64,000 nucleotides of DNA from assembly GCA_016389475.1 (NCBI GenBank), contig GCA_016389475.1_3042.1. One strand, 5' to 3'. This document shows positions 24,014-41,528 of the stretch, one piece after another (the stretch's first letter is position 1; the number at the start of each line of letters is the position of its first letter). The DNA is from a phage. The notes under the pieces were generated by a model that searched no databases, was not told the DNA's origin, and was given only the letters and a program-made list of their open reading frames with translations. Made by a program: the position numbers and the translations under genes.

Positions 24014-24022
24014 ATCACCTTC

Positions 24023-24208
24023 TTAAAGCGTATTCACATAAGCTATTAATTCATTTTCTTTCTTATCAAACCGATCAGCAAATTCTTCCTGCTGTTCAGG
24101 AGATAGCGGGCCGTATTCATCATAAAAGGTGTTTGCTTCTGTATGCTCATCTAGAAGTTCATGGATAAGCTCAAACAATTTATCTTTTTGTTCTTTACTC
24201 AGACTCAT
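24023..24208 (-). CDS. hypothetical acidic protein (61 aa)
   Basis: ATG overlaps the upstream stop (ATGA). Confidence 0.45.
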   Translation of the reverse strand: MSLSKEQKDKLFELIHELLDEHTEANTFYDEYGPLSPEQQEEFADRFDKKENELIAYVNTL

Positions 24209-24378
24209 ATATTAATTTCCAGGAGTTTTAAAATAATTCGCTTTTGCTTAAATATTTCCATAGTTAAATGACTAGTATCTTTTTGACCGATTCCAATGGC
24301 AAAACCTTTATTAACAGCGAGTTCAATTAAATTATCAAGCTCACGTAACACTTCGTATTGTAACTCAAAACTATTCAT
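24208..24378 (-). CDS. hypothetical small protein (56 aa, below the track threshold)
   Basis: ATG 24378 overlaps the upstream stop (ATGA) and its own stop overlaps the next ATG; MNSFELQYEVLRELDNLIELAVNKGF... Confidence 0.4.
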
Positions 24379-24587
24379 TTTGGTTTACCTTCTTTAACGA
24401 AATCAGGATAAGGATAAAATCCTGAATAAAATCCTTCACCTTTATGATTGATGCATCCTTTATTAGAACAATAGCACCAATAATCGAAATCACAAGCCAT
24501 TTCATCATTACATAAAGCAAAAACAACAGGCCACTTACACTTTTCACAGTGGGCATTTTTAAGAATACTAGTTTGGCTCATAACCAT
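24375..24587 (-). CDS. hypothetical cysteine-rich protein (70 aa)
   Basis: Track start is TTG; ATG 24587; eight Cys in CEKCKW...LCNDEMACDFDYWCYCSNKGC. Confidence 0.45.
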   Translation of the reverse strand: MVMSQTSILKNAHCEKCKWPVVFALCNDEMACDFDYWCYCSNKGCINHKGEGFYSGFYPYPDFVKEGKPK

Positions 24588-24790
24588 GTAACCTTTAAGC
24601 AATATTCTTCTACATGTTGTTTACGACCTTTCTTATCAATAAAGGTATATTCAACGAATGTTCCAATGTAGTCTTTATCTACATCATGTGGACTATTAAT
24701 TGGACATTTAGTACGGCAAATGCGTTCCCATTGACGAATAATTTCCACTTTGTTTTTAGGATCAAACGGATGTGGGTAATGTACTTTCAT
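24578..24790 (-). CDS. hypothetical protein (70 aa)
   Basis: ATG start. Confidence 0.45.
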   Translation of the reverse strand: MKVHYPHPFDPKNKVEIIRQWERICRTKCPINSPHDVDKDYIGTFVEYTFIDKKGRKQHVEEYCLKVTWL

Positions 24791-25241
24791 AATCCACCAC
24801 TATTAAATCAATATCAGGAGTAAACATGTCGATTAATTTAGAAACCTTATCCCAATCGCCGCCAGCAATACCACAACCTATGCGTGGAATGTAAATTACT
24901 GGTTTAAACAAAAGGGTTTCTGCCTGTAGATTTAATTCTATCATGCAGTTTACTAAAGCACCATAATCAAGATTAGGACCTGGTTCGTATTGCGTATACA
25001 AGTTATAACATATGCCAAAACCATTAGGTTTATGTTTAAAAACTATAGACATATCGCCTAATTTATCACGAGAACCGTACTCAGTAGTGGTTTTATCTAT
25101 TTCTAAAATTTTGGGATAGGCTCTTGCTAATTGACCCGCTACACCTGAACCCATAGTATGAAAACAATTGCACCCGTGCGCAATAATATTACCTTGAAGA
25201 AATAGGGCGACAATATCGCCCTTGATATATTTTACAATCAT
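24762..25241 (-). CDS. macro-domain-like protein (159 aa)
   Basis: KGDIVA...NIIAHGCNCFHTMGSGVAGQLA...IPRIGCGIAGG follows the macro-domain pattern GDIT...NAAN...GGGV...IAFP-IS-G-x-G. Confidence 0.55.
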   Translation of the reverse strand: MIVKYIKGDIVALFLQGNIIAHGCNCFHTMGSGVAGQLARAYPKILEIDKTTTEYGSRDKLGDMSIVFKHKPNGFGICYNLYTQYEPGPNLDYGALVNCMIELNLQAETLLFKPVIYIPRIGCGIAGGDWDKVSKLIDMFTPDIDLIVVDYESTLPTSV

Positions 25242-25579
25242 CTAGTACTCAATCCTCGATTATAAGAATCTACCAAACGGTCAACCATTGAATGACAAGC
25301 GGCTTTATCTTTCTCCTCCGCAACTGAACATTCTAAAGTATTCCACTTTTTAGCATATCGTTTTAACAATGTATCGTTTTTGTATCTACTTGATTTATCT
25401 CTTTCTCCGTCTTTATATGCATATATTAATTTCTGCGCAAATTCAGCTTGGCATGCTTTATTTTTCCCGCAATAATCCGCTGCAGTACGGTTTACATACT
25501 CTCTAATTTCAGTATATGATGTATCTGCTAACGCAGAAAATGAAATTAATCCTATACATAAAACCAAAATTTTAGTCAT
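25238..25579 (-). CDS. secreted/periplasmic hypothetical protein (113 aa)
   Basis: Signal peptide MTKILVLCIGLISFSALA; four Cys. Confidence 0.5.
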   Translation of the reverse strand: MTKILVLCIGLISFSALADTSYTEIREYVNRTAADYCGKNKACQAEFAQKLIYAYKDGERDKSSRYKNDTLLKRYAKKWNTLECSVAEEKDKAACHSMVDRLVDSYNRGLSTR

Positions 25580-26117
25580 TTACTATTTCCAAAAGTTTAT
25601 TATTTTTAAGGTAATTAGCCTTTTCTAGGACTTCAGAAGCATATTTAGAACCTGCTTTAACATTCCATCCCGAATTATAAGAGGATATTGCTTTTCTTAT
25701 ATCGCCCTTATGTATATTTAACCAATAAGAAAGTTCAATGTACGCCCAGGAAGCTGAATTGGACCGTTTATTCAACATTCTTTTTATTTCAGCATCGGTC
25801 ATATTATAACCAAGTTCCTTAACTCTTGCTCGCATAGTAGGCAAATAATTTTGGAACATTCCGTAGGCGTGATGCTTTGGTTTAGATTTTAAATTAACTC
25901 CGCCAGAGCTTTCTTGCCATAAAATAGCAGCCATTATATGACCTAATCCACTCTTGTGGATGTTTTTATGTGTTTTATATTTTCCATCCTTAGAAAATTG
26001 TTCCCCGAATTGATACGCGTAACGCATGTTATCGAGTTGGACATTACTGAAAGTATGCTCGGAGCTATGTGCCATCATTGAAATGGCCAATAGACCAGCG
26101 AGTAGTGCTTTTCTCAT
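25572..26117 (-). CDS. secreted lytic transglycosylase-like protein (181 aa)
   Basis: Signal peptide MRKALLAGLLAISMMAHS; SLT-like catalytic region ILWQESSGG...YGMFQ. Confidence 0.6.
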   Translation of the reverse strand: MRKALLAGLLAISMMAHSSEHTFSNVQLDNMRYAYQFGEQFSKDGKYKTHKNIHKSGLGHIMAAILWQESSGGVNLKSKPKHHAYGMFQNYLPTMRARVKELGYNMTDAEIKRMLNKRSNSASWAYIELSYWLNIHKGDIRKAISSYNSGWNVKAGSKYASEVLEKANYLKNNKLLEIVND

Positions 26118-26613: not shown

Positions 26614-26643
26614 ATTATACCACAGTCAAGAGGAAAAGTAAAC
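26614..26643 (-). promoter_or_regulatory. early (sigma70-type) promoter for regB
   Basis: Minus strand GTTTAC (26643-26638), 18-nt spacer, TATAAT (26619-26614); GAGGAG then regB ATG 26586. Confidence 0.6.
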
Positions 26644-29876: not shown

Positions 29877-30332
29877 TTAAAAGAGGCTGTTCATTATTCG
29901 GTAAAGTGAAGGACCCATCACATATTGCCACTGAGTACGAGGAATAAGAGCAAAAGCATCCATCTCTGGAATCATAACGCCATCTTTATTTTCAAAATAA
30001 GACTCGCAATGGCAATTTCTGAACATCTCATGCTCTACTGGAATCGTATAATAAAATAACTGTAAGTCTTTATTACTAGAATATTTAAATATACCTAGGT
30101 CTTCTAGAAGGTCTGGATTATAATTGCTAAAACCGGTCTCTTCTAAGCATTCTCTTTTTGCAGCTTCCAGTGCATTCAAATCAGAACTTTCTACACGCCC
30201 CTTTGGAATATCCCAGCGATGTGCCATCATTCCAGGCTTACGAGAACCAGTAACCCGACCCATAAATAAATCTTTATCTTCTGTCATAAAGATAATACCA
30301 GCTGATAGTGTTTTCATTTTAATTTCCTGCAT
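29877..30332 (-). CDS. nudE: Nudix hydrolase
   Basis: 151 aa; Nudix box GRVESSDLNALEAAKRECLEETGF. Confidence 0.8.
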   Translation of the reverse strand: MQEIKMKTLSAGIIFMTEDKDLFMGRVTGSRKPGMMAHRWDIPKGRVESSDLNALEAAKRECLEETGFSNYNPDLLEDLGIFKYSSNKDLQLFYYTIPVEHEMFRNCHCESYFENKDGVMIPEMDAFALIPRTQWQYVMGPSLYRIMNSLF

Positions 30333-35106: not shown

Positions 35107-35182
35107 TGGTCGAGGCAGTAGGGATCGAACCTACGACCCAGGACTTAGAAGGTCCTTGCTCTTCCTTCTGAGCTATGCCCCG
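35107..35182 (-). tRNA. tRNA-Arg (anticodon UCU)
   Basis: Manual cloverleaf: acceptor CGGGGCA/UGCCUCG, anticodon loop CU-UCU-AA, T-arm GUAGG-UUCGAUC-CCUAC, CCA encoded. Confidence 0.7.
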
Positions 35183-35186
35183 TAAT

Positions 35187-35262
35187 TGGGGTGACCGATG
35201 GGAGTCGAACCCATGACTACGAGAATCACAATCTCGAGTTCTACCAACTGAACTACGGCCAC
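35187..35262 (-). tRNA. tRNA-His-like (anticodon GUG)
   Basis: Acceptor GUGGCCG/CGGUCAC, loop UU-GUG-AU, discriminator C, CCA encoded; position -1 is U, not G. Confidence 0.6.
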
Positions 35263-35376
35263 ATTAATACCTACTCCAACAATCATGATGTCTTCACACG
35301 AAATTAAGAGAAGAGTGATCAGTTCAACCCCTATAATCGCGTCAAGTAGATATTAATGTGACAGTTGTCACAAATT

Positions 35377-35451
35377 TGGCGGACGTGATAGGATTCGAAC
35401 CTATAACCAATCGCTTAACAGGCGATCGCTCTGCCATTGAGCTACACATCC
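35377..35451 (-). tRNA. tRNA-Asn (anticodon GUU)
   Basis: Acceptor GGAUGUG/CACGUCC, loop CU-GUU-AA, T-loop UUCGAAU. Confidence 0.65.
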
Positions 35452-35455
35452 AAAT

Positions 35456-35542
35456 TGGTGGGGAGTGATGGAGTCGAACCACCCGAGTCGCAATGACAAT
35501 GAATTTACAGTCCACACCGCTACCTCTACGGGATAACTCCCC
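35456..35542 (-). tRNA. tRNA-Tyr (anticodon GUA), long-variable-arm type
   Basis: 87 nt; acceptor GGGGAGU/ACUCCCC, loop CU-GUA-AA, variable-arm hairpin GUCAUUGCGAC. Confidence 0.6.
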
Positions 35543-35554
35543 TAATTCATAATT

Positions 35555-35629
35555 TGGTGGCCCTGGGTGGAATTGAACCACCATCTGGCGATTATGAGTC
35601 GCTTGCTTGAACCTTCCAGCTACAGGGCC
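35555..35629 (-). tRNA. tRNA with CAU anticodon (Met, or Ile if lysidine-modified as in T4)
   Basis: Acceptor GGCCCUG/CAGGGCC, loop CU-CAU-AA, T-arm GGUGG-UUCAAUU-CCACC. Confidence 0.6.
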
Positions 35630-35630
35630 T

Positions 35631-35706
35631 TGGTGCTGATTGACGGAATCGAACCGCCGACATCCTCATTACAAGTGAGGTGCTCTACCTACTGAGCTAA
35701 ATCAGC
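35631..35706 (-). tRNA. tRNA-Thr (anticodon UGU)
   Basis: Acceptor GCUGAUU/AAUCAGC, loop CU-UGU-AA. Confidence 0.7.
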
Positions 35707-35711
35707 AAAAC

Positions 35712-35801
35712 TGGCGGAGGCGATAGGATTCGAACCTATGAGTCGCCGGAGCGACTGCCGGTTTTCAAGACCGGTGCATTCAACCACTCTGCCACGCCTC
35801 C
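35712..35801 (-). tRNA. tRNA-Ser (anticodon UGA), long-variable-arm type
   Basis: 90 nt; acceptor GGAGGCG/CGCCUCC, loop CU-UGA-AA. Confidence 0.7.
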
Positions 35802-35803
35802 AG

Positions 35804-35877
35804 TCTCCATACAAGGATTTGAACCTTGGACCTCCTGATCCCAAATCAGGCGCTCTACCAAACTGAGCTACACGGAG
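35804..35877 (-). tRNA. tRNA-Pro (anticodon UGG)
   Basis: Acceptor CUCCGUG/UAUGGAG, loop UU-UGG-GA; 3' CCA not encoded. Confidence 0.7.
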
Positions 35878-35887
35878 TAAATTAAAT

Positions 35888-35961
<74 letters not shown>

Positions 35962-35966
35962 AAATT

Positions 35967-36053
35967 TGGTGCGAGAAGTGGGACTCGAACCCACAAGGAA
36001 ATCATTCCGCAGCATTTTAAGTGCTGTGCCTTTACCAATTTGACCATTCTCGC
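35967..36053 (-). tRNA. tRNA-Leu (anticodon UAA), long-variable-arm type
   Basis: 87 nt; acceptor GCGAGAA/UUCUCGC, loop CU-UAA-AA. Confidence 0.7.
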
Positions 36054-36054
36054 G

Positions 36055-36127
36055 CTGGGAATAAAGGATTCGAACCTTTGCATCCTGGAATCAAAATCCA
36101 GTGCCTTACCAACTTGGCTAATTCCCA
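36055..36127 (-). tRNA. tRNA-Gln (anticodon UUG)
   Basis: Acceptor UGGGAAU/AUUCCCA, loop UU-UUG-AU; CCA not encoded. Confidence 0.7.
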
Positions 36128-37516: not shown

Positions 37517-38201
<685 letters not shown>

Positions 38202-40438: not shown

Positions 40439-40890
40439 TATGCCCCCTTAAAGCCAAGAGCTCGTAATCCATCTTCTGTTAGAATTCTAAATTTTATTCC
40501 ACGCTTTTCAGCTAAAGATTGTGCTGCTTTCCATTTGTCAGCGTTCACAGACCAGGTATAAATTTCATTCATAAATCTTTTCTTCGCTGCAGTTGTTAGA
40601 TGTGCTGGTTTAACTGGTGGTTGTGTTTCTTTTTTAGGTTTTATTTCAATAAAAAATTCTTGTCCAGAAGAATCTTTCATCCAAATATCCATGAAGTATC
40701 TACGTTTTTTCCCTTCTGCATTACAAAAATAAGGAATTACTGCTGTTTCACTACCCCATGCAATAATTTCTGGATTTTTATCTAACCATTCAAAAAAGAA
40801 TTTTTCCCAATTTGATCTATACGTAATTTTTTTAGGGTCACCTCTATATTTTGATATATTTTTAGGAACCCATTTTCCAGAATATGCCAT
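40438..40890 (-). CDS. 4: gp4 head completion protein
   Basis: 150 aa, the T4 gp4 length; late promoter TATAAATA 27 nt upstream. Confidence 0.75.
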
Positions 40891-40901
40891 TGGATTCTCC
40901 T

Positions 40902-40909
40902 TATAAATA
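40902..40909 (+). promoter_or_regulatory. late promoter (TATAAATA) for gene 53
   Basis: Exact TATAAATA 29 nt upstream of the ATG. Confidence 0.65.
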
Positions 40910-40916
40910 GATAATA

Positions 40917-40924
40917 TATTTATA
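40917..40924 (-). promoter_or_regulatory. late promoter (TATAAATA) for genes 4-2-3
   Basis: Exact TATAAATA on the minus strand 27 nt upstream of the gene 4 ATG; divergent from the gene 53 promoter. Confidence 0.6.
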
Positions 40925-40937
40925 AACAGGAGGGCCC

Positions 40938-41528
40938 ATGCTCTTTACATTTTTTGATCCGATTGAATATGCGGCCAAAACGGTGAATAAAAACGCGCCG
41001 ACTATTCCTATGACAGATATTTTTAGAAACTATAAAGACTATTTCAAACGTGCTCTTGCGGGATACCGCTTACGTACTTATTATATTAAAGGTTCACCAC
41101 GCCCGGAAGAATTAGCAAATACTATATATGGAAATCCACAGTTGTATTGGGTTTTATTGATGTGTAATGATAATTATGATCCATATTATGGATGGATTAC
41201 TTCACAAGAAGCTGCTTATCAAGCATCTATACAAAAATACAAAAACGTAGGTGGAGACCAAATAGTATATCATGTAAATGAGAACGGTGAAAAATTTTAT
41301 AATTTAGTATCATACGATGATAATCCATATGTTTGGTATGACAAAGGTGATAAAGCTAGAAAATATCCTCAATATGAAGGAGCACTTGCTGCTGTTAATA
41401 CGTATGAAGCTGCTGTTCTTGAAAATGAAAAACTTCGTCAAATAAAAATAATAGCAAAATCAGACATCAATTCATTTATGAACGACCTTATACGTATAAT
41501 GGAGAAATCTTATGGAAATGATAAGTAA
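40938..41528 (+). CDS. 53: gp53 baseplate wedge protein
   Basis: 196 aa; divergent from gene 4 with its own late promoter; precedes gene 5. Confidence 0.8.
   Translation: MLFTFFDPIEYAAKTVNKNAPTIPMTDIFRNYKDYFKRALAGYRLRTYYIKGSPRPEELANTIYGNPQLYWVLLMCNDNYDPYYGWITSQEAAYQASIQKYKNVGGDQIVYHVNENGEKFYNLVSYDDNPYVWYDKGDKARKYPQYEGALAAVNTYEAAVLENEKLRQIKIIAKSDINSFMNDLIRIMEKSYGNDK

Follow-up and report, generated by a model that had tools for sequence, protein, structure and literature searches.

What does a free-standing macrodomain do in a T4-like phage, and whose ADP-ribose marks would it act on? The question is raised by a 159-aa, ATG-initiated open reading frame (ORF) found in the ORF listing of a 64,000-nt stretch of phage DNA, which we call the window. 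DarTG systems stop phages through ADP-ribosylation of phage DNA, and T-even phages themselves encode three ADP-ribosyltransferases (PMC9503650). A first-pass annotation had described the protein as macro-domain-like and had proposed that it could reverse or read either kind of modification, that made by host DarT or that made by the phage enzymes Alt, ModA, and ModB. Here we assign the gene to a locus, the protein to a macrodomain class, and its active site to a type, and we then weigh the possible targets.

Gene identity and locus

The window is Tequatrovirus DNA. The 2.6 kb around the ORF shares 99.5% identity with Escherichia phage vB_EcoM-Sa45lw (here, Sa45lw), and about 470 Tequatrovirus records match it at 95% identity or more. 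Genes in the region run in the order tk, small ORFs, a tk.3-like ORF, the 159-aa ORF, vs, vs.1, and regB. The order in T4 is identical, and the T4 annotation names the gene between vs and tk.3 as tk.4. The test of positional orthology to T4 tk.4 gave vs and tk.3 neighbors set in a Tequatrovirus backbone, with flanks that are 97-99% identical at the DNA level. By sequence and position, then, the ORF is the ortholog of T4 tk.4, i.e., the tk.4 (adfM) gene of a T4-like phage. T4 tk.4 has long been annotated as “phosphatase; contains A1pp phosphatase motif,” and in some GenBank records an identical or near-identical protein already carries the label “macro domain protein.” The gene and the features at and upstream of its start are as follows.

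24762..25241, minus strand: tk.4/adfM-type macrodomain gene, 159 aa (ORF, Pfam Macro match, AlphaFold2 model, fold matches, and homology to Tk.4)
25238..25241, minus strand: ATGA overlap of the vs stop codon and the tk.4 start codon (ORF coordinates and sequence)
26614..26642, minus strand: best sigma-70-like promoter match, TTTACT-17-TATAAT with TG, just upstream of regB

The ATGA stop/start overlap suggests that vs and tk.4 are translationally coupled. At its other end, tk.4 overlaps the tk.3-like ORF, which belongs to DUF7202, by 29 nt. The vs ortholog (113 aa, 25238-25579) has a signal-like hydrophobic segment at its N terminus, and the vs.1 ortholog (181 aa, 25572-26117, minus strand) combines a hydrophobic, signal-like N terminus with an SLT lytic-transglycosylase domain (PF01464, E=1e-5).

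The site upstream of regB may serve as an early promoter of the tightly packed, co-directional string regB-vs.1-vs-tk.4. We place little weight on it, since the region holds 21 promoter-like sites against 20.9 expected from shuffled sequence, which is no enrichment. At 25204-25222, within tk.4 codons 7 to 13, a perfect hairpin rich in GC (AGGGCGA-N5-TCGCCCT), with a T-rich tract behind it, was flagged as terminator-like on both strands. It lies in the conserved 5′ end of the gene, where T4 has the identical sequence, and it may be a coincidence of the coding sequence.

Fold and macrodomain class

Re-translation of the ORF returned 159 residues and the motifs on which the first-pass annotation had been built: KGDIVA at residues 7-12, NIIAHGCN...MGSGVAGQLA at 18-39, and IPRIGCGIAGG at 118-128. 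The protein matches the Pfam Macro family (PF01661) at 33.1 bits (E=6e-8), above the gathering cutoff of 22 bits, over profile positions 2-117 of 118. In a single-sequence phmmer search of the PDB, the matches included BT1257 (1e-10), yeast Poa1p (1e-9), and SCO6735 (8e-8), followed more weakly by Mycobacterium tuberculosis DarG (2e-5) and TARG1 (8e-3). A profile built from 75 homologs strengthens these matches to values from 6e-19 through 1.6e-10.

The structure model leads to the same family. AlphaFold2, run on the 75-homolog alignment, gave a model with a mean pLDDT of 94 and a pTM of 0.89, and the predicted fold is the three-layer alpha/beta/alpha macro fold, on whose appearance in structure prediction the first-pass annotation had beforehand staked its proposal. 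The leading Foldseek matches in the PDB were TARG1 at the top, Poa1p, BT1257, DarG, and SCO6735, all with probability 1.00. The ADP-ribose-binding loops MGSG and IGCGIAGG and the conserved asparagine (N25) are present and are invariant or nearly so among the 75 homologs. The structural neighbors form the ALC1/TARG1-like class and are clearly apart from the MacroD, viral, and PARG classes. With Pfam, PDB profile searches, the AlphaFold2 model, and Foldseek in agreement, the macrodomain identity is confirmed as far as profiles and predicted structure reach, and we regard the 159-aa protein as a stand-alone macrodomain of the ALC1/TARG1-like class.

A glutamine at the catalytic position

Invariant columns were defined by the 75-homolog alignment. 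They comprise H22, G23, N25, C26, G33, A35, and D49 and, further along the chain, N80, Y82, Q84, P119, G122, G124, and W130. Most of these residues fall in three motifs:

25137..25178, minus strand: loop-1/distal-ribose motif HGCNCFHTMGSGVA, residues 22-35 (H22, N25, and G33 family-invariant)
24990..25004, minus strand: NLYTQ motif, residues 80-84 (Q84 at the catalytic position; N80, Y82, and Q84 invariant)
24852..24887, minus strand: phosphate-binding loop PRIGCGIAGGDW, residues 119-130 (P119, G122, G124, and W130 invariant)

The sequences of SCO6735, BT1257, TARG1, and DarG were recovered from the PDB search alignments and aligned with the window protein, T4 Tk.4, and gp104 of phage PhiKZ. 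MAFFT places Q84 in one column with Gln85 of SCO6735, Lys84 of TARG1, Lys80 of Thermus aquaticus DarG, and the lysine of the PTKD motif of gp104; N25 aligns with N22 of DarG. In an hhalign comparison of the family profile with SCO6735 (probability 98.7%), H22 pairs with His24, N25 with Asn27, N80-x3-Q84 with N81-x3-Q85, and G122 and G124 with Gly126 and Gly128. A HMMER profile alignment had set T83 opposite TARG1 Lys84. We rejected that register in favor of Q84 because MAFFT and hhalign agree in pairing Q84 with SCO6735 Gln85, which the authors of the SCO6735 study treat as the equivalent of Lys84 and Lys80. As read from these alignments, the T-even Tk.4 clade has an SCO6735-type, Gln-directed active site without the lysine of DarG and TARG1.

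In published work, SCO6735 removes ADP-ribose linked to thymidine in DNA and confers protection from DarT. Neither the Lys nor the Asp found in TARG1 and DarG is present in it; its Q85A mutant is inactive, N27S is nearly inactive, and G128E has reduced activity (PMC9411070).

A divergent allele in a conserved backbone

The window protein and T4 Tk.4 are 57% identical (89 of 155 residues, no gaps, E=1e-69), and by residue count the identity falls from about 77% over residues 1-60 to 52% over 61-120 and 34% over 121-155. The genes around it are far closer to T4 at the DNA level: tk is 97.5% identical, vs 97.1%, vs.1 99.1%, and regB 98.5%. The tk.3-like ORF is 91.5% identical overall and 96-100% in its body, the drop being confined to the overlap with tk.4. 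The body of tk.4 itself has 64.6% DNA identity to T4, with sharp transitions near 24745 and 25130. A three-way DNA alignment and windowed identity define the divergent segment:

24745..25130: allele cassette divergent from T4 (42-76% identity in 50-bp windows; flanks 96-100%)

Judged by these alignments, the tk.4 gene of the window is a mosaic allele replacement relative to T4. By tblastn, the window-type allele (at least 90% identity) occurs in about 319 phage records and the T4-type allele in about 224, and there are more allele classes, some 80-90% identical to T4 and others 60-80% identical to the window. Carriers of the window allele include the BASEL phages FriedrichMiescher and FriedrichZschokke as well as Sa45lw. 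In the phosphate loop, the window sequence IGCGIAGGDW is the family consensus and the T4 sequence IGAGIGKGNW is derived.

A second mosaic cassette directly adjoins the divergent tk.4 allele. Compared with T4, the stretch at 24014-24590, from tk to the tk.3-like ORF, has been exchanged, and its alignable parts are 50-58% identical with many gaps. Where the T4 counterpart holds tk.1 and tk.2, the window has a 61-aa ORF of family DUF7438 (24023-24208), a 57-aa ORF without a Pfam match (24205-24378), and a Cys-rich ORF of 68/75 aa (24375-24602) that matches Pfam Phage_zn_bind (E=3e-29).

Proposed role in counter-defense

The role of the T4 ortholog in resistance to DarTG2 is known from genetics. 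T4 lacking both adfA and adfN is still resistant to DarTG2, which led to the prediction of another factor (PMC11825919). When a T4 transposon library was grown on a DarTG2 host, tk.4 was the sole significant hit, and a clean tk.4 knockout became DarTG2 sensitive; the gene was named adfM, for anti-DarT factor macrodomain, in a preprint of November 2025 (10.1101/2025.11.20.689424). A macrodomain of phage PhiKZ, gp104, was independently named AdfM and has been shown biochemically to strip DarT2-made ADP-ribose from an oligonucleotide (PMC13309987, Cell Rep 2026). In the CmdTAC paper we found no link between macrodomains and RNA ADP-ribosylation.

Since the T4 ortholog is needed for DarTG2 resistance, the anti-DarT half of the first-pass proposal was right, and the SCO6735-like site of the window protein is in line with it; the half concerning Alt, ModA, and ModB found no support here. 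An anti-DarT macrodomain is thus already known, having been published in 2025 for the T4 ortholog, and the window does not hold a new kind of system.

We propose that the tk.4/adfM protein acts in counter-defense as an orphan antitoxin. Host DarT2 would ADP-ribosylate thymidines in single-stranded phage DNA and so block replication. The attached ADP-ribose would be bound in a cleft that loop 1 (HGCNC...MGSG) makes up together with the phosphate-binding loop (IGCGIAGG); N25 and Q84 would position the distal ribose, while both glycine loops would hold the diphosphate. Gln84, at the catalytic position and held by Asn25 as in SCO6735, would then allow hydrolysis of the N-glycosidic bond between ribose and thymine, releasing free ADP-ribose and leaving the DNA intact.

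The window protein is probably a hydrolase that removes ADP-ribose from DarT2-modified thymidines in phage single-stranded DNA. The window itself contributes the macrodomain fold, the orthology to T4 tk.4, and the conserved SCO6735-type active site. The chemistry has been demonstrated only for SCO6735 (PMC9411070), DarG, and gp104 (PMC13309987), and the anti-DarTG2 role is known from T4 genetics, reported in a preprint for an allele that shares only 57% identity with that of the window; by analogy with these relatives, we infer the same substrate and role for the window allele.

Free ADP-ribose could have a further fate in the phage. A NUDIX hydrolase ORF (PF00293, E=7e-13) lies at 29877-30332, minus strand, at the position of T4 nudE/e.1. 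T4 NudE hydrolyzes ADP-ribose among other substrates, and the protein at this position, if NudE-like, could dispose of the ADP-ribose freed by the macrodomain.

Alternative targets

The same enzyme family could serve another target, either a different DarT2 variant or another nucleic-acid ADP-ribosyltransferase (for example, one whose product is uracil-linked [U-ADPr] or phosphate-linked ADP-ribose on RNA), or it could act mainly by binding and inhibiting the toxin. Sequence divergence of this order amid near-identical flanks, and several allele classes co-circulating in T-even phages, speak for such a shift. Cleavage of U-ADPr on RNA is known for both SCO6735 and TARG1 (PMC13036486), and SCO6735 inhibits DarT through direct interaction (PMC9411070). 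The active-site residues, however, are invariant across the alleles, which indicates a shared chemistry; the divergence of the alleles keeps an altered specificity in consideration, and we regard this reading as doubtful. A more elaborate version joins two claims, that the tk.4 clade works without a lysine, by the Gln-directed mechanism for which SCO6735 is so far the only demonstrated case, and that its alleles are specificity variants in an arms race. The window allele might then neutralize another set of DarT2 enzymes or a different nucleic-acid ADP-ribosyltransferase, such as an RNA-modifying one, partly by binding the toxin; taken together, these claims seem rather unlikely. Readings that leave DarT aside fare less well. 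That the protein reads or erases the marks of the phage's own Alt, ModA, and ModB, whether ADP-ribosylation or RNAylation, and so tunes host takeover, draws on the presence of three such transferases in T-even phages and on the existence of arginine-specific macrodomains, of which MavL is one cited in PMC13036486. Yet the protein belongs to an ALC1-like clade without any link to arginine-ADP-ribose, and in the PDB searches it was not notably similar to MavL-type domains. In the closest genome, Sa45lw, the 42.6-kb stretch reaching about 20 kb to either side of the gene has no annotated ADP-ribosyltransferase gene, and in the T4 screen on a DarTG2 host tk.4 stood as the one significant hit. We consider it very improbable that this is the role of the protein.

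The database names point elsewhere again, to an enzyme of metabolites rather than DNA repair, that is, an ADP-ribose-1″-phosphate (Appr1p) phosphatase or an O-acetyl-ADP-ribose (OAADPr) deacetylase that clears soluble ADP-ribose derivatives in the infected cell. “Phosphatase” and “Poa1p-like” do imply such an activity, but both are transfers by homology only. The residues mutated in Poa1p structures are H23, S30, and F152. H22 and T29 are the counterparts of the first two, and the protein may have a side activity of this kind; the alignment to Poa1p, however, is strong in the N-terminal half only, and it is weak in the remainder, where F152 lies (E=6.2 for the second stretch). Moreover, the catalytic position corresponds to SCO6735 Gln85, and the phenotype of the T4 ortholog is specific to DarTG2. 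Appr1p phosphatase or OAADPr deacetylase activity is unlikely to be what the gene was selected for, and we judge this reading as a whole improbable. Removal of ADP-ribose from DarT2-modified thymidines is the reading we prefer.

Other features of the window

Three further regions were noted. Eleven tRNA genes (Arg, His, Asn, Tyr, Met, Thr, Ser, Pro, Gly, Leu, and Gln) lie at 35107-36127, minus strand, the identical set being found in Sa45lw; T4 itself has 8 tRNA genes. At 37517-37972, minus strand, a 151-aa ORF sits directly upstream of a 76-aa ORF and a dNMP kinase gene. Synteny makes the 76-aa ORF the counterpart of the gene annotated in Sa45lw as “chaperone for tail fiber formation,” and the 151-aa ORF is at the position of T4 57B/Acb1, a putative assignment made by position. 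Acb1 is an anti-CBASS nuclease mentioned in the HIDEN-SEQ preprint. The Sa45lw annotation also includes a homing endonuclease at 40637-41233 (corresponding to about 43.7-44.4 kb in the window), in the region between gene 5 (baseplate hub) and gene 6 (wedge), which is typical of the mobile-element content of T-even phages.

Comparison with known systems

The closest characterized relative is T4 Tk.4/AdfM, with which the window protein has in common the locus between vs and tk.3, the length class (159 versus 155 aa), and the invariant H, N, Q, and G residues. Its C terminus is 4 aa longer, and the DarTG2 phenotype is known only for the T4 allele, with its 57% identity.

In its active site, the protein resembles SCO6735 of Streptomyces coelicolor (PDB 5e3b). 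Sequence identity to SCO6735 and to BT1257 of Bacteroides (2afc/2fg1) is only about 26-29%, but His24, Asn27, and Gln85 of SCO6735 are matched by H22, N25, and Q84 in both the MAFFT and hhalign alignments, and the segment PRIGCG, with G122 and G124, is identical to PRIGCG with Gly126 and Gly128. Differences lie around this core. Lys34 of SCO6735, which positions DNA, is replaced by Ser32 in the hhalign alignment, and Lys89 sits in a loop of 5-6 residues after the Gln that is missing from the window protein. SCO6735 is, moreover, a cellular protein, whereas the window protein is phage encoded.

Human TARG1/OARD1 (4j5r) and yeast Poa1p (6lfq) belong to the same macrodomain class. The Lys84/Asp125 dyad of TARG1 corresponds to Gln84/Ala126 in the window protein, so that a TARG1-type dyad is absent. 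Poa1p has the HxCNC motif in common with the window protein.

We also considered, and rejected, a DarG identity (structures 5m3i from M. tuberculosis and 5m31/5m3e from T. aquaticus). The window protein has no C-terminal DarT-binding domain, the catalytic Lys80 of T. aquaticus DarG is replaced by Gln84, and no darT was found next to tk.4, whose neighbors are vs and the tk.3-like DUF7202 ORF. The NCBIfam DarG equivalog NF048014 (PADLOC DarG) scores 27.8 bits, far under its cutoff of 250, and covers profile positions 2-142 of 338.

PhiKZ gp104 is likewise a phage-encoded, stand-alone macrodomain, and it neutralizes DarT2. It is of another subfamily, however, DarG-like and with the PTKD lysine where the window protein has Gln, and BLASTP between the two gives only two short patches (E=0.001). 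Given this minimal similarity, we rejected equating the window protein with the PhiKZ protein on the strength of their common name. The Gln site of the Tk.4 clade, set against the DarG-like lysine and scant similarity of gp104, leads us to conclude from the sequences that the name AdfM spans two independent recruitments of different macrodomain subfamilies, a T4 type and a PhiKZ type.

The mosaic allele swap at adfM, together with a Gln-type active site distinct from those of DarG and PhiKZ AdfM, goes slightly beyond the literature. Phages carry orphan erasers that resemble antitoxins, AdfN acting on guanine and AdfM on thymine; these explain the DarTG resistance of T-even phages and are relevant to predicting host range for therapy. 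The difference between T4-type and PhiKZ-type AdfM matters for the design of mutants and inhibitors and for any transfer of function by name.
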